Shown one piece after another: positions 19,078-49,402 of a stretch of 64,000 nucleotides of DNA. Every line of letters begins with the position of its first letter. Position 1 is the stretch's first letter. The notes beneath the pieces are model-generated. The model saw only the letters and a program-made list of their open reading frames with translations. It was not told where the DNA came from and did no database searches. A program made the translations under genes and the position numbers. Source of the stretch: Escherichia coli 042 (GTDB lineage: Bacteria; Pseudomonadota; Gammaproteobacteria; Enterobacterales; Enterobacteriaceae); assembly GCF_000027125.1 (NCBI RefSeq), contig NC_017626.1. One strand, given 5' to 3'.

Positions 19078-19215
<138 letters not shown>

Positions 19216-22320: not shown

Positions 22321-22334
22321 GGCTCCGACGTTCG

Positions 22335-22421
22335 GTGCCTGATGCGACGCTGGCGCGTCTTATCAGGCCTACGAGTCGCCCGTATGTAGGCCGGATAAGG
22401 CGTTCACGCCGCATCCGGCAC
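22335..22421. repeat. REP/BIME cluster
   Basis: GCCTGATGCGACGCTGGCGCGTCTTATCAGGCCTAC followed by GTAGGCCGGATAAGGCGTTCACGCCGCATCCGGCA. Confidence 0.85.
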
Positions 22422-22495
22422 CCGGTTTACGGAACTTAAGAATCCCCAACCTAACGCCGCTTTTAACCGGCACGATTTACCGGTAAGGATCCAAC

Positions 22496-23872
22496 ATGGA
22501 CATGATTAACATCGGCTACAGCGGCGCATCAACCGCGCAGGTGGAGCTGAACGTCACGGCGCAAAACACCGCCAACGCCATGACCACGGGCTACACCCGT
22601 CAGGTGGCGGAGATCAGCACCATCGGTGCCAGCGGCGGTTCGCCGAACAGCGCCGGTAACGGCGTGCAGGTCGATAGCATTCGCCGCGTCTCCAACCAGT
22701 ATCAGGTGAATCAGGTGTGGTATGCCGCCAGCGATTACGGCTATTACAGCACCCAGCAAGGGTATCTCACGCAACTGGAAGCGGTACTGAGCGACGATAA
22801 CAGCAGCCTGAGCGGCGGCTTCGATAACTTTTTCGCCGCCCTTAACGAAGCGACCACCAGCCCCGATGATTCCGCCCTGCGCGAGCAGGTGATCAGCGAA
22901 GCCGGGGCGCTGTCGCTGCGTATCGACAACACGCTGGATTACATCGACTCGCAAAGCACGGAAATCATCAGCCAGCAGCAGGCGATGGTGTCGCAAATTA
23001 ATACGCTCACCAGCGGTATCGCCAGCTATAACCAGCAAATCGCTCAGGCCGAAGCCAACGGCGATAACGCCTCCGCGCTGTACGACGCCCGCGACCAGAT
23101 GGTGGAAGAACTCAGCGGGATGATGGATGTGCAGGTCAATATCGACGACCAGGGCAACTACAACGTTACCCTGAAAAACGGTCAACCGCTGGTGAGCGGG
23201 CAGCAAAGCTCGACCATCGCGCTGGAAACCAACGCCGACGGCACGCCGACCATGTCGCTGACCTTCGCCGGAACCACCTCGACGATGACCACCGACACTG
23301 GAGGTTCATTAGGCGCACTGTTTGATTATCAAAACGACGTGCTGACGCCGCTGACCGACACCATCAACAGCATGGCGTCGCAGTTTGCCGATGCGGTCAA
23401 CAATCAACTGGCGCAGGGCTACGATCTCAACGGCAACCCCGGCGAGCCGCTGTTTATTTATGACGCCAGCAACGCCGATGGCCCGCTGACCGTCAACCCG
23501 GATATCACCGCCGATGAGCTGGCGTTTTCCAGTTCACCGGACGAAAGCGGTAACAGCGACAACTTACAGGCGCTGATCAATATCTCCACCGAACCGCTGG
23601 AGATAGCCAACCTCGGCAGCGTGACGGTCGGGCAGGCGTGCTCGTCAATCATCAGCAATATCGGCATTTACAGCCAGCAAAACCAGACGGAAGTCGATGC
23701 CGCGTCCAATGTCTATTCCGCAGCGCAAAACCAGCAGAGCAGCGTCAGCGGCGTCAGCATGGACGAAGAGGCGGTTAACCTGATCACCTATCAACAAATT
23801 TATGAAGCCAATCTGAAAGTCATTTCCGCCGGGGCCGAGATTTTCGATTCGGTGCTGGAAATGTGCAGCTAA
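22496..23872 (+). CDS. lfgK: FlgK homolog (hook-associated protein 1)
   Basis: 458-aa ORF with axial-protein N-terminus and FlgK position. Confidence 0.85.
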   Translation: MDMINIGYSGASTAQVELNVTAQNTANAMTTGYTRQVAEISTIGASGGSPNSAGNGVQVDSIRRVSNQYQVNQVWYAASDYGYYSTQQGYLTQLEAVLSDDNSSLSGGFDNFFAALNEATTSPDDSALREQVISEAGALSLRIDNTLDYIDSQSTEIISQQQAMVSQINTLTSGIASYNQQIAQAEANGDNASALYDARDQMVEELSGMMDVQVNIDDQGNYNVTLKNGQPLVSGQQSSTIALETNADGTPTMSLTFAGTTSTMTTDTGGSLGALFDYQNDVLTPLTDTINSMASQFADAVNNQLAQGYDLNGNPGEPLFIYDASNADGPLTVNPDITADELAFSSSPDESGNSDNLQALINISTEPLEIANLGSVTVGQACSSIISNIGIYSQQNQTEVDAASNVYSAAQNQQSSVSGVSMDEEAVNLITYQQIYEANLKVISAGAEIFDSVLEMCS

Positions 23873-25882: not shown

Positions 25883-26227
25883 ATGATGTGGGACGTCGAG
25901 ACAACGGAGACTTTCGACAACTGGTTTGATGCCCAGACTGTTGCGCTGAAAGAAGATTTACTTGCTGCAATGCTGATTCTTGCTGAGTATGGCCCACAGT
26001 TGGGCAGACCCTTTGCGGATACGGTTAATGATTCACAGTTTTCAAATATGAAAGAATTACGCGTCCAACATCAGGGAAACCCGGTACGTGCTTTTTTTGC
26101 TTTCGATCCTGCGCGCCGTGGCATTGTATTATGTGCGGGTGATAAAACGGGGTTAAATGAGAAAAAGTTTTATCGCGATATGATCAAGCTCGCTGATTCT
26201 GAATACCGTAAGCATCTGAAAAAGTAA
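25883..26227 (+). CDS. HigB/RelE-superfamily toxin-like protein (Gp49-like)
   Basis: 114-aa ORF resembling the HigB/Gp49 killer family (ELRVQHQGNPVRAFFAFDPARRGIVLCAGDK), paired with a downstream HTH protein. Confidence 0.7.
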   Translation: MMWDVETTETFDNWFDAQTVALKEDLLAAMLILAEYGPQLGRPFADTVNDSQFSNMKELRVQHQGNPVRAFFAFDPARRGIVLCAGDKTGLNEKKFYRDMIKLADSEYRKHLKK

Positions 26228-26236
26228 GGAACGATA

Positions 26237-26536
26237 ATGGCTACTCTAAAAGAACTGATGGCAAAGCAAAGCCCTGAAAGCCAGGCGCGTATTGCGGCAA
26301 AAGTTGAGGAAATGCGCCAGACCATCGCCTTGCATCAGCTGAGAGAAGAACTCAATATTTCGCAAACGGAAATGGCGGCAGCGATGGGCATTAAGCAACC
26401 GACTCTTGCAAAAATGGAGCAGGCAGATAACGATCCTCGGTTGTCTACGCTAAAACGCTATGTTGCGGCTTTAGGTGGGGAATTGAGTATCGACGTTAAA
26501 CTGCCGAATGGTAAGAGAATTGCATTTCAGATTTAA
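26237..26536 (+). CDS. HigA-like HTH (XRE-family) antitoxin
   Basis: 99-aa ORF with HTH (LNISQTEMAAAMGIKQPTLAKME), 10 bp downstream of the toxin gene. Confidence 0.7.
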   Translation: MATLKELMAKQSPESQARIAAKVEEMRQTIALHQLREELNISQTEMAAAMGIKQPTLAKMEQADNDPRLSTLKRYVAALGGELSIDVKLPNGKRIAFQI

Positions 26537-27487: not shown

Positions 27488-27849
27488 AAAGCACAGTCTT
27501 ATACGTCCCTGAGAAGATGATTTTTCTGCGTGATAATTAATATTTTATGGTGATAAGATTATTCTTAATCACTATATAGCGTGGAAATGTAACGAAATGA
27601 CAGGACAGGTACAATAGCCAAATGTGTACTATTTGCAACGCAATGTAAATTTTGGCATCAGTACATTGAGAACAAAACGCGATAATTGATGACAATCTTA
27701 ACTATATCAAGCGTTTGATAAAGACATATTTTGATACCTGGCCATGTGGCAGATATTGCTAATAATCTTTTTATCTGAATTTAAACTCTGCTTTTTTTAG
27801 CTAAAAGTGGCATCGGATAATACGTGGCGAAAAAATTATAACGGCGATT

Positions 27850-27877
27850 TTAAGTTTGCTCCTGAGGTGTCGTTTTT
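27850..27877 (+). promoter_or_regulatory. Candidate sigma-28-type promoter upstream of lafA
   Basis: TTAAGTTT, 12-nt spacer, TCGTTTTT about 45 nt upstream of the lafA ATG; same layout as the lfgM candidate. Confidence 0.3.
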
Positions 27878-27921
27878 ACAGGGTATCGAAACGAAAACGA
27901 TTAATCCCAAGGAGCAGTATC

Positions 27922-28836
27922 ATGTTATCTATTAACACCAATAACGCCTCAATGGCCGCCGTTAATGCAATCAGCAAAAGCAGCTCTTCTCTGTCTACAT
28001 CTATGGAACGCCTGGCGACAGGTAACCGGATTAACTCTTCTGCCGATGACGCCGCAGGCAAACAAATTGCTAACCGTCTGACAGCACAGTCCAGCGGTAT
28101 GGGTGTTGCGCTGAGCAACATCAATGATGCCACCGCGATGCTGCAAACCGCTGACAGCATGTTCGACGAAATGTCTGACGTGCTGGGTCGTATGAAAGAC
28201 CTGTCAACTCAGGCAGCGAACGGCACCTACAGCGACGACGACCTGCAGGCGATGCAGGACGAATACGACGAACTGGGCCAGCAGATGTCTGACATGCTGC
28301 AAAACACCACTTACGGCGGCACCAACCTGTTCGGTGTTTCCGGTACCAGCAACACCGGTACTGACGGTCTGTTCCAGAGCGCGGTAACTTTCCAGGTGGG
28401 CGCGGAATCTTCCGACACCATGACCGTGAATATTTCAAGCCAGCTGAATACCCTGGTGACGGATCTTTCTGCAATCAGCAACTCCTTTAGTGCGGATCAG
28501 GCTGACACCACTGGCACCGCAGGCGTTTCTGGCGGTACTGAGCTGACTGCGTCTGGCTCGGCTAACCAGATGATCACCAGCATCTCTACCGCGATGGATG
28601 ACGTGTCTCAGATCCAGTCCAAGCTGGGTGCCTCTATCAACCGTCTGAACGACACTGCCAACAACCTGACCAGTATGCAAGACAACACCGAAGTCGCTAT
28701 CGGTAACATCATGGATACCGACTACGCGACGGAAGCGTCCAATATGACCAAACAGCAAGTGCTGATGCAGACTGGCATCACCATGCTGAAACAGTCCAAC
28801 AGCATGTCCAGCATGGTTTCCAGCCTGCTGCAGTAA
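27922..28836 (+). CDS. lafA: Lateral flagellin
   Basis: Flagellin N-terminus (MLSINTNNASMAAVNAISKSSSSLSTSMERLATGNRINSSADDAAG) and C-terminus (TKQQVLMQTGITMLKQSN); start at 27922 with AGGAG ribosome-binding site. Confidence 0.9.
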   Translation: MLSINTNNASMAAVNAISKSSSSLSTSMERLATGNRINSSADDAAGKQIANRLTAQSSGMGVALSNINDATAMLQTADSMFDEMSDVLGRMKDLSTQAANGTYSDDDLQAMQDEYDELGQQMSDMLQNTTYGGTNLFGVSGTSNTGTDGLFQSAVTFQVGAESSDTMTVNISSQLNTLVTDLSAISNSFSADQADTTGTAGVSGGTELTASGSANQMITSISTAMDDVSQIQSKLGASINRLNDTANNLTSMQDNTEVAIGNIMDTDYATEASNMTKQQVLMQTGITMLKQSNSMSSMVSSLLQ

Positions 28837-28837
28837 T

Positions 28838-28870
28838 GGCGGACTTGCCGATGCGGCGTAAACGCCTTAT
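28838..28870. repeat. REP unit
   Basis: GCCGATGCGGCGTAAACGCCTTATCCGGCC. Confidence 0.8.
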
Positions 28871-28880
28871 CCGGCCACGA

Positions 28881-28992: not shown

Positions 28993-29008
28993 TTGGCACG
29001 CCTTTTGC
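28993..29008 (+). promoter_or_regulatory. Sigma-54 (-24/-12) promoter upstream of lafB
   Basis: TGGCAC-GCCTT-TTGCC, matching TGGCAC-N5-TTGC, 33 bp upstream of the lafB ATG. Confidence 0.7.
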
Positions 29009-29040: not shown

Positions 29041-30357
29041 ATGATTAACCCAAGAACCATTGCGCAAGAAATTGCTTATGCGGATGTCGCCACCCAGGCG
29101 GCAAATTTGCAGGAGAAGCAGACCGAGCTGGACGCTGAAAGCAGCGGCCTGGACTCGCTCAGCTCGGCGTTAAGCGATTTCCAGAGCGCCGTTGACGCGC
29201 TGAACAGCGATACCGACGGCCCGGTGACTTTTGCCGCCACCAGCAATAATGACTCGGCGACCGTTTCCGCTAACTCGCAGGCACAGGCGGGAAGCTACTC
29301 GTTTTTCGTTGAGCAACTGGCGCAGGGGCAGCAAACCACGTTCAGTATGGGCGACGACGCCTTTTCCGCTACCGGTACTTTTGAACTGACGATGGGCGAC
29401 AGCACCATGGATATCGATCTGTCGGCGGCAGATCAGAACGGTGACGGCGACGGTTTTATCGACGCCAGCGAACTGGTGAACGCGATTAACGACTCCGATG
29501 ATAATCCAGGCGTTTCAGCGGCGTTGGTGAAAACCGACGGCACCACCACCATTATGCTCACCTCCGATAGCACCGGGGCGCAGAGCGCGTTTTCGGTGAG
29601 CGTAACGGGGCATGATGCCAGCAACGATAGCACCAGCGCGCCCGTTGCCACGGTTGTTTCCTCAGCCCAGGACGCGATTATTCATCTCGGTAGCGCCACG
29701 GGCCCGGCGATCACCAACAGCAGCAATACGTTTGATGATGTGATCCCCGGCGTCACCATGACTTTTACCGAAGTCAGCGATTCTGACAGCGACCTCACCA
29801 CTTTTAACATCAGCGAAGATTCCAGCTCCAGCCAGGAGAAAGTACAGACTTTTGTCGATGCCTATAACACCTTGATTGATACGGTTGATTCGCTAACCAC
29901 TCACGGTGATGACAGTACCAGCGCCGGGGTATTTGCAGGCGACGCCGGACTCAGTTCACTGGCGAACCAGCTCGATGACATCGCCCATGCCAGCTACAAC
30001 GGCGTGTCGATTGTTGACTATGGCATCACCCTCGATTCTCACGGCCACTTACAGATTGACTCCGACCAGTTCAACGACGAAATGGCGAAAAATCCTGACG
30101 GTCTGACCTCTATTTTCGTTGGCGACAACAGCATGGTAGCGCAGATGGACGACCTGATTAACACCTACACGGACTCCAGCAACGGCATCATCACCCTGCG
30201 CCAGCAGAACATTGACGATCAGATGAGCAAAATTCAGGACGAAGGCGATCAGCTTACTGATACCTATAACGCCAACTACGACCGTTATCTCGAGGAGTAC
30301 ACCAACACGCTGGTCGAGGTGTACACCATGAAAGCCAGCATGGCGGCATTCGCGTAA
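29041..30357 (+). CDS. lafB: FliD homolog (filament cap)
   Basis: 438-aa ORF with FliD-like termini, directly after the flagellin gene. Confidence 0.82.
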   Translation: MINPRTIAQEIAYADVATQAANLQEKQTELDAESSGLDSLSSALSDFQSAVDALNSDTDGPVTFAATSNNDSATVSANSQAQAGSYSFFVEQLAQGQQTTFSMGDDAFSATGTFELTMGDSTMDIDLSAADQNGDGDGFIDASELVNAINDSDDNPGVSAALVKTDGTTTIMLTSDSTGAQSAFSVSVTGHDASNDSTSAPVATVVSSAQDAIIHLGSATGPAITNSSNTFDDVIPGVTMTFTEVSDSDSDLTTFNISEDSSSSQEKVQTFVDAYNTLIDTVDSLTTHGDDSTSAGVFAGDAGLSSLANQLDDIAHASYNGVSIVDYGITLDSHGHLQIDSDQFNDEMAKNPDGLTSIFVGDNSMVAQMDDLINTYTDSSNGIITLRQQNIDDQMSKIQDEGDQLTDTYNANYDRYLEEYTNTLVEVYTMKASMAAFA

Positions 30358-32153: not shown

Positions 32154-32621
32154 ATGAAGAAAATCGTGGTGGCGGGCGTGGTCAGCGCCGTTCTGGCGTT
32201 GGTGGTGGGGGCCGGAGCTGGATGGGGTGTCTGGCATCATTATGCCGGAAAAGGAAAACCGACTGCCGCCGCGCAGACGGAAACGGTGGAAACCCTGGAT
32301 GAAAGCAAAAGCGTGTTTGTGACGTTGCCGGAAACCATTGTCACTTTGCATGACAACAACGGCGCGGACCATTATTTGTCGGCGGAATTAGTGATGGTGG
32401 TTGCCAGTGACAAAGAAGCGGAAAAAATAAAACATCAGGAGCCGCTGTATCAAAGTATTGCAGTTGAATGCCTGACGGAAATGAAATTTGAAGATTTGCG
32501 CGGCATGAAAATATCTGCCATCCGCAAACTGATTTCGGATGCGTTAAAGAAAGATCTTCAACGTCGCAAAATGAGCGCACCGTATAAGGATTTGCTGGTG
32601 AAAAAAGTGGTCTTCCAGTAA
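32154..32621 (+). CDS. lafF: FliL homolog (basal-body-associated membrane protein)
   Basis: 155-aa ORF with one N-terminal TM helix and FliL-like periplasmic region. Confidence 0.75.
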   Translation: MKKIVVAGVVSAVLALVVGAGAGWGVWHHYAGKGKPTAAAQTETVETLDESKSVFVTLPETIVTLHDNNGADHYLSAELVMVVASDKEAEKIKHQEPLYQSIAVECLTEMKFEDLRGMKISAIRKLISDALKKDLQRRKMSAPYKDLLVKKVVFQ

Positions 32622-32640
32622 TCACCAGGCGGATATAAAC

Positions 32641-33357
32641 ATGCTACAGGATGTATTCGAGTCAGAAGAATTTGCTGCCGCGCCGGTATTAACCCCGCAG
32701 CAGGAGAGCCACTACTTGCAGGCCTATTTACCACTGGTGCGTAAAGTTGTGCGGCAACTTGCCCCGCAGTGTAATTGCATTATTGATCGTCAGGATATGG
32801 AACAAACGGCGTTAATGGGGCTGCTTAATGCCATTCGCCGCTACGGACTGCCGGACGAAGGTTTTGCGGGCTATGCCGTGCACCGTATTCGCGGCGCGAT
32901 CCTGGATGAGCTGCGCGCTCTCGACTGGCGACCGCGCCAGCTGCGACAGAAATATCATCAGATGAAAGATCTGATTCGTGAGACGCGCAAAAAACTGGGG
33001 CACGAACCGGAGTGGTCAGAACTGGCCGTGGAAGGGATTTCGCATGAAGATTATCTCGAATATCAGCAACTGGAAGGGGCGGAAACGCTCGCCAGCCTGG
33101 ACGAACTGCTGAACGGTGAAGGGCCCGGCATTCCACTTGCTGGCAGGGAACTGGAAGATCAGTTTGTCACCCAGCAAATGCTGCAACACGCGCTTTCACT
33201 ATTAAGCGAAAAAGAGCAACTGATCCTCTCCATGTATTACCAGCATGAGATGAATCTCAAAGAGATTGCGCTGGTATTAGGGCTAACCGAGGCCCGAATT
33301 TGTCAACTGAATAAACAGATCGCGCAGAAAATTCGTGATTTTGTCTATCCGAATTAA
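32641..33357 (+). CDS. lafS: Sigma-28 (FliA-family) sigma factor
   Basis: 238-aa ORF with sigma-70 region 2 and region 4 HTH (LKEIALVLGLTEARICQLNKQI). Confidence 0.85.
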   Translation: MLQDVFESEEFAAAPVLTPQQESHYLQAYLPLVRKVVRQLAPQCNCIIDRQDMEQTALMGLLNAIRRYGLPDEGFAGYAVHRIRGAILDELRALDWRPRQLRQKYHQMKDLIRETRKKLGHEPEWSELAVEGISHEDYLEYQQLEGAETLASLDELLNGEGPGIPLAGRELEDQFVTQQMLQHALSLLSEKEQLILSMYYQHEMNLKEIALVLGLTEARICQLNKQIAQKIRDFVYPN

Positions 33358-39495: not shown

Positions 39496-40005
39496 ATGTT
39501 TATCGGTCATCTTCCGGCTGGTTATTTAATAACTTGTACTTTAATGAAACGCTTGCCACTGATTGCTCGTCATGCGCGCTGGGCGATGGTTATTGGCTTA
39601 CTTGGGGCCGTTGCGCCCGATTTTGATCTTTTTTGGTGCTATCTGGTTGATAACGGGCAACGACATCATCATCTTTACCCGTCTCATTGGCCATTATTAT
39701 GGTTTGCTCTGCTGGCGGCGACATTAGTCTGGGCAGGAATTGCGAAGAATAAACTTCCGGCGTGGCTGGGCGTGGTGTTTTGCCTGAATAGTATCGCGCA
39801 TTTATTACTCGATACGCTGGTCGGTGATATCTGGTGGCTGATGCCTTTCGTTAACCAACCGTTTGCATTCTTTCATATTACGGCGGTACATCATCCGTGG
39901 TGGCTCAATTTTTTATTACACTGGTCGTTTTTACTGGAACTGGCATTAGTGGTTGCCGCCATTGCCATGTGGTGCAGGCGTAATGCCAAAATGGTAAATG
40001 CATGA
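39496..40005 (+). CDS. Inner-membrane protein, possibly membrane-bound metal-dependent hydrolase family
   Basis: 170-aa multi-TM ORF with His-rich motifs (HARWAM, QRHHHLYPSHW, HHPWW); family assignment uncertain. Confidence 0.5.
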   Translation: MFIGHLPAGYLITCTLMKRLPLIARHARWAMVIGLLGAVAPDFDLFWCYLVDNGQRHHHLYPSHWPLLWFALLAATLVWAGIAKNKLPAWLGVVFCLNSIAHLLLDTLVGDIWWLMPFVNQPFAFFHITAVHHPWWLNFLLHWSFLLELALVVAAIAMWCRRNAKMVNA

Positions 40006-48147: not shown

Positions 48148-48223
48148 GCCGATATAGCTCAGTTGGTAGAGCAGCGCATTCGTAATGCGAAGGTCGTAGG
48201 TTCGACTCCTATTATCGGCACCA
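48148..48223 (+). tRNA. thrW: tRNA-Thr (anticodon CGT)
   Basis: GCCGATATAGCTCAGTTGGTAGAGCAGCGCATTCGTAATGCGAAGGTCGTAGGTTCGACTCCTATTATCGGCACCA; cloverleaf with CGT anticodon and 3' CCA. Confidence 0.95.
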
Positions 48224-48224
48224 T

Positions 48225-48503
48225 TTAAATCAATAAGTTACACATAATTAGTACCTTCCTTTTTTTTGACTGGGACAAATTTGGGACCGATGGGTTCAGG
48301 ACTGAGTCTATTTGCCGTGCGTGTTCGGTAAGGTGATTAGGCGCGAGGTGAGCATATCGACGAACCATTTCGATAGACTCCCAGCCTCCCATTTCTGAAA
48401 ATGCAAGAAGAGAAACACTGGACTGAACCAGCCTGCTTGCCTTTGCTATCAAAGTACCTTGAAGGCCAGATGATTTCTGGCGATATTTACAGCGCTTCCG
48501 CAA
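48225..48503 (-). pseudogene. 3' remnant of a P4-type tyrosine integrase gene abutting thrW
   Basis: C-terminal integrase signature [32 protein letters not shown] with the catalytic-Tyr RRYAHL motif; no N-terminal or core domains upstream. Confidence 0.75.
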
Positions 48504-48585
48504 TGAGTTTTTCTCTGTGCCGCCAGAGGCGTTCCCCGCTTTTTCAGCACCGCAATAATGTCGGCGGAATGCCAGTCCTGTTGCA

Positions 48586-49056
48586 TCATGCGGCCACCTC
48601 GCTGATAAATTTTACGCCGTCGGCGGTACGCAGCCAGCGTGGGGCTTTGAGTCCTTCCGTGAAATACCAGACCAGCTCACACAGCAGCCCGGTCAGGGTT
48701 TGCTCCATTTTTGGTTCCGCCGGACGTTCCAGCAGAAGCTGGAGTAGTGCGAGGCAGTATTCGCACAAGGAATCAGGTTCGGAAATAAAGTGCTCTGGTG
48801 TGGCGGGAAGGGTATCCACGGTCAGGCTTTCGGTAAGATGCGGTGGGATGGGGTCGTGTAGTGTGGGTTGCAGTAGCGCAAGAGCCGCGTGAAGCCGCCC
48901 GCAGAGCGCCAGTCGTAGCGCTGGATCGTCGGTTTCAATCAGGGTTTCGGCAAAGCGGGCGCAGTAGTCAGCAAGGACAGTGAAATCCGTGGTGGCATTG
49001 AAGGGGACGGTCAATAGATCGAGTAAATCGCTGTCAGTGGTGAGGATTGTAGCCAT
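48586..49056 (-). CDS. Hypothetical 156-aa protein, function unknown
   Basis: Acidic Leu-rich ORF with GGAGG ribosome-binding site 8-12 nt upstream of the ATG; no motif recognised. Confidence 0.55.
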
Positions 49057-49059
49057 AGG

Positions 49060-49260
49060 GCAACCTCCGATAAGTGGGTGTTCAAGCCACCACCGGAGAG
49101 GCTAATCTCGCGGGTGGTGGAACCGGGCAGGGTTAGCCTTACCAGCCTTATCGGACACTGGCGCGTCTTGCGACGCCCCCGCCCGGCCCACCATTGAGAT
49201 GTAACCGTGCGAACAACACAAAAAAAGACGCTGGCGCGTCATGTGTCGCCGATAAGATTT
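49060..49260. repeat. Cluster of degenerate REP-like palindromic units and hairpins
   Basis: GACACTGGCGCGTCTTGCGACGCC (49155-49178) and GACGCTGGCGCGTCATGTGTCGCC (49227-49250); CCGATAAG/CTTATCGG three times; 8-bp inverted repeat CCACCACC/GGTGGTGG (49087-49094/49113-49120); minus-strand GACGC-loop-GCGTC hairpin followed by T7 (49221-49241). Confidence 0.65.
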
Positions 49261-49402
49261 CTTCAGGAGGCTAATCCCGACGCCTGATTTTGCAGGCGCG
49301 GGAGAAAGATACTGCGATTGGTCATGAGTGGCAAGGGCTACATCATGTTTACCGACATCTCACGCAAAAATACCCTGATTATTAATAGCGAAAATCAGTT
49401 TC

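Follow-up and report, generated by a model that had tools for sequence, protein, structure and literature searches.

Enteric FliA reads class 3 promoters of the form TAAAGTTT-N11-GCCGATAA, among them those of the Flag-1 genes fliC, flgM, flgK and tar. In the E. coli and P. aeruginosa sigma-28 structures the -10 box is numbered G-15 C-14 C-13 G-12 A-11 T-10 A-9 A-8. C-13 and G-12 are critical for recognition by E. coli sigma-28, the extended -10 GC is read by an arginine (R97 in P. aeruginosa, aligned to E. coli R91), and the non-template A-11 flips into a shallow cavity made by a region 2 loop, where it stacks on Y76 in P. aeruginosa (aligned to E. coli Y70). The flagellin (hag) promoter read by B. 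subtilis sigma-D has an UP element upstream and a canonical -10, GCCGATAT.

Lateral flagellar regulons governed by LafS (FliAL) have been described in V. parahaemolyticus, A. hydrophila and P. shigelloides, where a sigma-54 tier leads to LafS and LafS to the late genes. Deletion of fliAL (lafS) in Plesiomonas lowers fliCL, flgMNL and flgKLL, as measured by RNA-seq (PMC11242183). No consensus for a lateral or Flag-2 sigma-28 promoter was found in the full-text literature searched, the classic V. parahaemolyticus, Aeromonas and Flag-2 papers lying outside its coverage.

The DNA analysed here, referred to as the window, is a 64-kb stretch of E. coli sequence with a Flag-2 lateral-flagellar locus that would follow the same tiers. 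We describe paired boxes upstream of lafA, lfgM and lfgK, and from comparison of sequences we consider these sites likely to be late class 3 Flag-2 promoters read by LafS.

The Flag-2 locus and its candidate late promoters

The region around the sites is 100% identical to E. coli chromosomes in which lafA, fliD and a transcriptional regulator are annotated, and the RefSeq annotation of this identical region describes a complete Flag-2 lateral-flagellar locus (Table 1). The gene order upstream of lafA is lafW, a RelE/ParE-HTH pair and lafZ (minus strand), and lafS is followed by lafT, lafU and dinB in this order. The toxin-antitoxin pair, inserted between lafW and lafZ, lies in variable region 2 as described for Flag-2 loci.

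An initial annotation of the window had noted that lafA and lfgM share an TAAAGTTT-like -35 octamer and a -10-like element about 40 nt before the ATG. Reading the sequence bore out the coordinates and the octamers, and the -10 box ends 45 nt before the ATG of lafA and 38 nt before that of lfgM. The 12-nt spacer given for both genes holds for lfgM, but at lafA it is 11 nt in the register set by the orthologues. The -10 element had been written as (T/A)CG(T/C)TTT; its shared core stands, as YCGYTTT, but its register was one base off for lfgM. The literal (T/A)CG fails at lfgM, which reads ACCG, because the 12-nt spacer there gives ACCGCTTT. In the register of the orthologue set the box is (G/A)YCGYTTT, with spacers of 11 nt at lafA and 12 nt at lfgM. 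An alternative register at lafA has the spacer gctcctgaggt(g), followed by (G)TCGTTTTT ending at 27877. The third site, upstream of lfgK, was absent from the initial annotation. Transcription start sites are predicted for all three genes (Table 1) by taking the G or A of the box as -15, that of lafA by sigma-28 numbering.

Table 1. Positions in the 64-kb window of the candidate promoters, the surrounding genes and other features discussed in the text
Feature	Position	Strand	Sequence	Remarks
Sigma-54 box	13935-13921	-	CGGCAC-N5-TTGC	One mismatch; about 35 nt before a hypothetical gene
lfgN	14013-14441	-		RefSeq annotation
lfgMN operon	14013-14732	-		Served by the candidate promoter upstream of lfgM
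lfgM	14454-14732	-		Anti-sigma factor, annotated as FlgM; ATG 14732; RefSeq annotation
lfgM predicted start	14762-14765	-		About 14763
lfgM -10 box	14778-14771	-	ACCGCTTT	Candidate
lfgM -10 box, 10-nt form	14778-14769	-	ACCGCTTTAC	Candidate
lfgM spacer		-	tgccgcctgtta	12 nt, between -35 and -10 boxes
lfgM -35 box	14798-14791	-	TAAAGTTT	Candidate; 15 nt past lfgA stop codon
lfgA	14813-15550	-		RefSeq annotation
Sigma-54 box	15580-15594	+	TGGCAC-N5-TTGC	Perfect; before lfgB
lfgB to lfgL		+		RefSeq annotation
lfgC insertion	16015-16016		GC	2 bp, relative to strain 118UI
lfgC remnant	16113-16403			96-aa ORF
lfgD-lfgE interval	about 17107-17131			Longer in strain 118UI
REP-type palindromic element	19083-19159	+		Between lfgF and lfgG; matches Rfam naRNA4
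REP-type palindromic element	22330-22420			Between lfgJ and lfgK
lfgK candidate promoter	22436-22465	+	TTAAGAAT-N12-GCCGCTTTTA	31 nt before ATG
lfgK predicted start	near 22471	+
lfgK	22496-23872	+		ATG 22496; RefSeq annotation
RelE/ParE toxin and HTH antitoxin genes	25883-26536	+		Between lafW and lafZ
Weak sigma-70-like site	27739-27766			About 110 nt upstream of the lafA boxes
A-tract/T-tract	27830-27841	+	aaaaaattataa	About -54 to -43; 10-22 nt upstream of lafA -35 box
lafA -35 box	27850-27857	+	TTAAGTTT	Candidate; about -34 to -27
lafA -10 box	27869-27876	+	GTCGTTTT	Candidate; spacer 11 nt (gctcctgaggt)
lafA extended -10 and -10 box	27869-27878	+	GTCGTTTTTA	Candidate; G is -15
lafA 5' leader	27879-27921	+	acagggtatcgaaacgaaaacgattaatcccaaggag
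lafA predicted start	27882-27886	+		About 27884
lafA	27922-28836	+		Lateral flagellin gene; ATG 27922; RefSeq annotation of identical region
REP-type palindromic element	28850-28880			After lafA
Sigma-54 box	28994-29008	+	TGGCAC-N5-TTGC	Perfect; before lafB
lafB	29041-30357	+		Operon includes lafS
lafF-lafS	32154-33357			19-nt gap between genes
lafS	32641-33357	+		FliA/WhiG-family sigma factor; Pfam sigma-70 regions 2 and 4
Intragenic matrix match	39905-39933	+	TCAATTTT-N11-GTCGTTTTTA	Within 'metal-dependent hydrolase' gene
tRNA, then C4 antisense RNA and isrK matches (Rfam)	48148-49299			Adjoins 1,069-aa minus-strand ORF

Conservation of the two boxes in other genomes

Flag-2 loci were fetched via the P-ring protein LfgI, whose gene lies midway between the lafA and lfgM sites, with 10 kb on each side and one genome per species. 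The retrieved set comprised about 30 Enterobacterales loci from Escherichia, Pseudocitrobacter, Citrobacter, Phytobacter, Enterobacter, Leminorella, Rahnella, Rosenbergiella and Tatumella, and a further set of beta-proteobacterial loci. lafA and lfgM orthologues were located by tblastn and their upstream regions were then read. This comparison with other Flag-2 loci, which the initial annotation had suggested, showed both boxes in the gene's orientation before every lafA and lfgM orthologue found, that is, in every retrieved Enterobacterales locus containing the gene. Their consensus is TTAAG(T/A)(T/A)T-N12-G(T/C)CG(C/T)TTT, with TA frequently coming next; nearly all spacers are 12 nt and a few 11 nt long, and their sequence varies freely between genera.

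Computed over 24 distinct lafA and 18 distinct lfgM sequences, information content was 1.46 and 1.60 bits per column (lafA and lfgM sets, respectively) in the -35 box and 1.68 and 1.39 in the -10 box, with 0.42 and 0.51 in the spacer and 0.53-0.61 and 0.51-0.65 in the flanks. Such a profile is what a two-box promoter classically leaves as its phylogenetic footprint. The lafA -35 box is kept in all lafA orthologues, and the lafA -10 box is identical in Escherichia, Citrobacter, Phytobacter and Tatumella. Among lfgM orthologues the -10 box is G(T/C)CGCTTT. The E. coli copies are slightly off consensus, with the 11-nt spacer at lafA and A for G at -15 of lfgM. In E. coli the lafA and lfgM promoter segments are single-copy and occur in about 1,270-1,280 of 5,426 complete genomes. 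The only variant allele examined, EcPF18, was drawn from the 95-99% identity band, where most genomes fall, and differs from the window solely in the spacer.

A position weight matrix was built from 20 distinct non-Escherichia sites, all of them upstream of lafA or lfgM orthologues, and the 30 loci were scanned with it at a threshold of at least 15 bits. Matches clustered 25-93 nt before lafA, lfgM and lfgK, always on the gene's strand. Because the lafA and lfgM sites trained the matrix, their counts are partly circular: 28 matches at lafA, three of these being secondary sites up to 163 nt upstream, and 22 at lfgM, plus five where tblastn had missed the short gene. The lfgK sites are independent of the training, as is the scan of the window described below. 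They accounted for 11 matches, all at the same position as in the window, and 12 matches lay elsewhere, those five lfgM ones set aside. By eye, the lfgK element is visible in all Enterobacterales orthologues and in most of the beta-proteobacterial ones. In several beta-proteobacterial loci the form TTAAGTTT-N12-GTCGCCTT precedes flgM-like, flgK and flagellin genes.

Among the 24 distinct lafA orthologue sequences, the columns aaAAaattTTtt are conserved upstream of the -35 box in nearly all genera, and the A-tract/T-tract of the window may be an UP element. The B. subtilis hag promoter is likewise a sigma-28-family flagellin promoter with an A/T-rich upstream element, but its -10 is canonical, unlike that of lafA, where moreover the UP element is putative. 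Citrobacter has a T-tract before the lfgM -35 box as well. The lafA 5' leader is nearly unchanged across Escherichia, Citrobacter and Phytobacter, unlike the intergenic DNA upstream of the lafA promoter, which has diverged among them. A search of Rfam placed no family at the sites or in their leaders, the lafA leader included.

Three Citrobacter loci also contain TTAATTTT-N12-GCCGATATTA on the plus strand (L008, 580-609; L009, 583-612; L010, 521-550), about 9.4 kb upstream of lfgI. This element, TTAATTTT-N12-GCCGAT(A/G)TTA, has a canonical FliA-like -10; we dropped it as a promoter candidate, there being no clear downstream gene in the three loci.

The -10 box and the sigma factor LafS

The Flag-2 sites share most features of sigma-28 promoters. 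The sigma-28 -35 element TAAA(G)/TAAAGTTT is represented by TTAAGTTT, TAAAGTTT and TTAAGAAT, with the TTAAG core conserved in orthologues, and the extended -10 GC and the C-13 G-12 core are present. Sigma-28 octamers stand about 11 nt apart (15 nt after TAAA), and the corresponding distance is 11 nt at lafA and 12 nt at lfgM and lfgK. The sites point towards the late flagellar genes they precede, at a distance of 25-93 nt in about 30 loci, and the locus encodes both a sigma-28-family factor (lafS) and a FlgM-type anti-sigma factor (lfgM). The downstream half ATAA with A at -11 is absent from the Flag-2 sites, and thus these are not canonical FliA promoters; they nevertheless appear to work like sigma-28 class 3 promoters.

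The initial annotation had remarked that the -10 differs from the FliA consensus GCCGATAA, and this difference proved systematic. When positions -15 to -8 are assigned by analogy with FliA, G-15 is found in 18 of the 20 training sites, while all 20 have C or T at -14, C-13, G-12 and, at -11, C or T and never A; -9 and -8 are mostly T. The downstream half of the -10 is therefore YTTT in place of ATAA, and spacers are usually 12 nt long, against 11 nt at FliA promoters. The resemblance to FliA promoters otherwise lies in the two-box layout, the near-identical -35 and the retention of G-15, C-13 and G-12. It extends to the regulon, whose targets are flagellin, the anti-sigma factor and hook-associated proteins, with a flgM-type promoter just after flgA, and to LafS itself, a member of the same family that is paired with a FlgM-type anti-sigma factor.

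LafS aligned to E. coli FliA (PDB 6PMI) with E = 7.6e-31. In this alignment it keeps FliA R58, R74 and R84, which contact the -13 and -12 bases in the E. coli structure, and Y70, D81 and R91, which correspond to the P. aeruginosa contact residues Y76, D87 and R97. Residues facing the downstream half have changed: Q63, which contacts -11A, is P in LafS, and T69, which contacts -9A, is G. R95 has become Q and R98 has become H. The FliA loop RYDALQGTAF, which receives the flipped base, is RYG-LPDEGF in LafS, shorter by one residue, and this altered loop is kept in all Flag-2 LafS and beta-proteobacterial LafS-like proteins examined. DNA and protein thus differ and agree at matching points, consistent with LafS as the reader with its own -10 preference. 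That preference is probably distinct from the preference of the co-resident Flag-1 FliA, judging from the two sequences. The base that flips could instead be the conserved A that follows two or three positions later (TTTTA). The initial annotation had offered a LafS-specific variant as one reading of the -10, and both the cross-genus conservation and the sigma factor comparison favour it; the most fitting description of the sites is that of a sigma-28 promoter variant belonging to the LafS clade.

It is unlikely, in our judgement, that Flag-1 FliA is the main user of the sites, as ordinary sigma-28 promoters with a -10 that is a weak GCCGATAA. The near-consensus -35 and the retained G-15, C-13 and G-12, including the two bases critical for E. 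coli sigma-28, would suit FliA, but the departure at -11, -9 and -8 is constant. The Flag-2 sites have 4-5 mismatches to the 16-base FliA consensus, and a scan of the whole window for canonical FliA promoters gave no site with 3 or fewer. The motif also persists where Flag-1 is reported missing: Leminorella grimontii ATCC 33999, reported to lack Flag-1 (PMC6993521), keeps it at lafA, lfgM and lfgK (locus L023), which argues against FliA as the required sigma factor. It persists too in the beta-proteobacterial loci, where the sigma gene, in those loci that include it, is LafS-like.

The motif appears not to extend to every lateral system, the clade of the experimental model among them: in the V. 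campbellii lateral locus on chromosome 2, the sole Vibrio lateral locus examined, there was no convincing motif before lafA. The best match there scored 16.4 bits and lies about 200 nt before lafB. V. campbellii LafS is 40% identical to E. coli LafS, and its loop differs again, without the deletion. A search for LafS homologues returned only Enterobacterales among the 120 matches listed. Several assemblies, at least one of them named E. coli, encode a 400-aa fusion of LafF (FliL domain) and LafS (proteins P0001-P0017), implying that in those strains the frame changes within the 19 nt that separate lafF from lafS.

Other promoter types in the window

Perfect sigma-54 boxes precede lafB, whose operon contains lafS, and lfgB, and a box with one mismatch precedes a hypothetical gene that heads the variable region adjoining lfgN. 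With 1 or fewer mismatches allowed, sigma-54 boxes were found at these and other places but not at lafA, lfgM or lfgK. Scans for sigma-70 promoters (TTGACA-N16-18-TATAAT) gave no match overlapping the lafA or lfgM site and nothing at lfgK. This distribution points to two promoter types in the locus: a sigma-54 type at the structural operons, including the one with lafS, and the TTAAG...GYCGYTTT type at the genes for flagellin, the anti-sigma factor and its chaperone, and the hook-associated proteins.

We consider it quite improbable that the boxes are bound by a transcription factor, for example LafZ or LafK, or belong to a sigma-70 promoter that has an UP element. The setting of lafA lends this idea some appeal, as 485 nt of AT-rich DNA separate lafA from the divergently transcribed lafZ, the lafA -35 box has a conserved A/T tract immediately before it, and a weak sigma-70-like site is found farther upstream. 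But the same two-box motif stands with fixed spacing and orientation before three late operons, two of them far from lafZ, and the boxes themselves have no sigma-70-like match. LafK-type sigma-54 promoters elsewhere in the locus look different, and both boxes resemble the halves of the sigma-28 consensus.

Box pairs and matrix scores within the window

The pattern TWAAGTTT-N11-13-YCGYTTT, searched for on both strands of the window (128 kb), matched the lafA and lfgM sites and nothing else, and had no match in 300 windows simulated with a first-order Markov model. The TAAAGTTT-like octamers alone were not enriched (43 observed, 39.7 expected); the signal resides in the box pair and its position, not in the octamer alone.

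When the window was scanned with the matrix, the lafA site ranked first (27.8 bits), an intragenic match second (22.4 bits) and the lfgM site third (20.5 bits). The lafA site shifted by one base was fourth, and the lfgK site was fifth, or fourth without this duplicate, with 18.8 bits from a matrix trained without any lfgK site. In 30 simulated windows the highest score was 20.4 bits and the mean maximum 16.2 bits. A coincidence between AT-rich upstream regions, which the initial annotation had allowed for, is scarcely credible and can be set aside: the octamers by themselves occur at chance frequency, but the paired pattern is missing from all simulations, the lafA and lfgM scores lie above every simulated maximum, both boxes persist from genus to genus with their spacing and orientation fixed while the spacer sequence varies, and the lfgK site was found independently.

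The intragenic match also exceeds every simulated maximum. It sits within an accessory 'metal-dependent hydrolase' gene, carried by 327 of 5,426 E. coli genomes, with convergent genes downstream. We rejected it as a promoter: it probably matches by chance, in T-rich sequence coding for a membrane protein; an intragenic promoter at this place is nonetheless conceivable.

A model of late Flag-2 expression

Reading by LafS would fit into the following order of events. LafK and sigma-54 would activate the structural operons, including lafB...lafS. LafS would then bind core RNA polymerase, its region 4 reading TTAAG(T/A)(T/A)T at about -34 to -27 and its regions 2 and 3 reading G(T/C)CG(C/T)TTT at -15 to -8, and transcription would begin about 7-8 nt past the -10 box, giving 5' leaders of roughly 25-40 nt. 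LfgM would keep LafS inactive until the hook-basal body exports LfgM, and through this hold flagellin, LfgM/N and LfgK/L would be made last. We infer the hierarchy, the dependence on LafS and the start sites from features read directly, namely the motif with its statistics, conservation and position. The three operons with the motif are the same as the fliCL, flgMNL and flgKLL operons of the Plesiomonas FliAL regulon. In Plesiomonas fliDSL...lafTU is FliAL-responsive as well, whereas lafB in the window is preceded by a sigma-54 box and not by a site of the LafS type.

The system may not run to completion in this strain. Relative to strain 118UI, lfgC carries a 2-bp insertion that shifts the reading frame and leaves only a short ORF, which probably makes the rod of Flag-2 defective. 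On the usual view of the checkpoint, LfgM would then be retained in the cell and LafS would stay inactive, so that the late Flag-2 promoters may be silent here.

These results specify, in precise and conserved terms, the late promoters of enterobacterial Flag-2 systems, which occur in about one quarter of complete E. coli genomes. They extend a well-understood type of regulation and reveal no new type. The matrix can be used to seek LafS-controlled genes beyond the locus. Any mutual avoidance of FliA and LafS could rest on a changed preference for the -11 base tied to the sigma factor loop, which is testable; we infer this role of the loop, and any insulation from FliA, from the directly observed differences in sigma factor sequence. 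As a tentative proposal, for which we would claim somewhat less than even confidence, the LafS-type sigma factors of Enterobacterales Flag-2 loci and the related beta-proteobacterial loci may form a distinct specificity class in the sigma-28 family, in which the shorter loop would switch -11 to a pyrimidine. The -10 for this class would then read GYCGYTTT instead of GCCGATAA, the Flag-1/FliA and Flag-2/LafS regulons could operate in the same cell with hardly any cross-talk, and sigma-28 factors and their promoters would here form an orthogonal pair that occurs in nature.

Further features of the window

The interval between lfgD and lfgE is longer by about 120-127 bp in strain 118UI (L001, 9988-10132), a difference that rests solely on coordinate offsets. 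Within the Flag-2 locus, REP-type palindromic elements occupy the lfgF-lfgG and lfgJ-lfgK intervals and also follow lafA; the lfgK candidate promoter is intact, directly downstream of one of them. The tRNA with the adjoining C4 antisense RNA and isrK matches, next to a long minus-strand ORF, may belong to a prophage or integrated element that sits at the tRNA gene.
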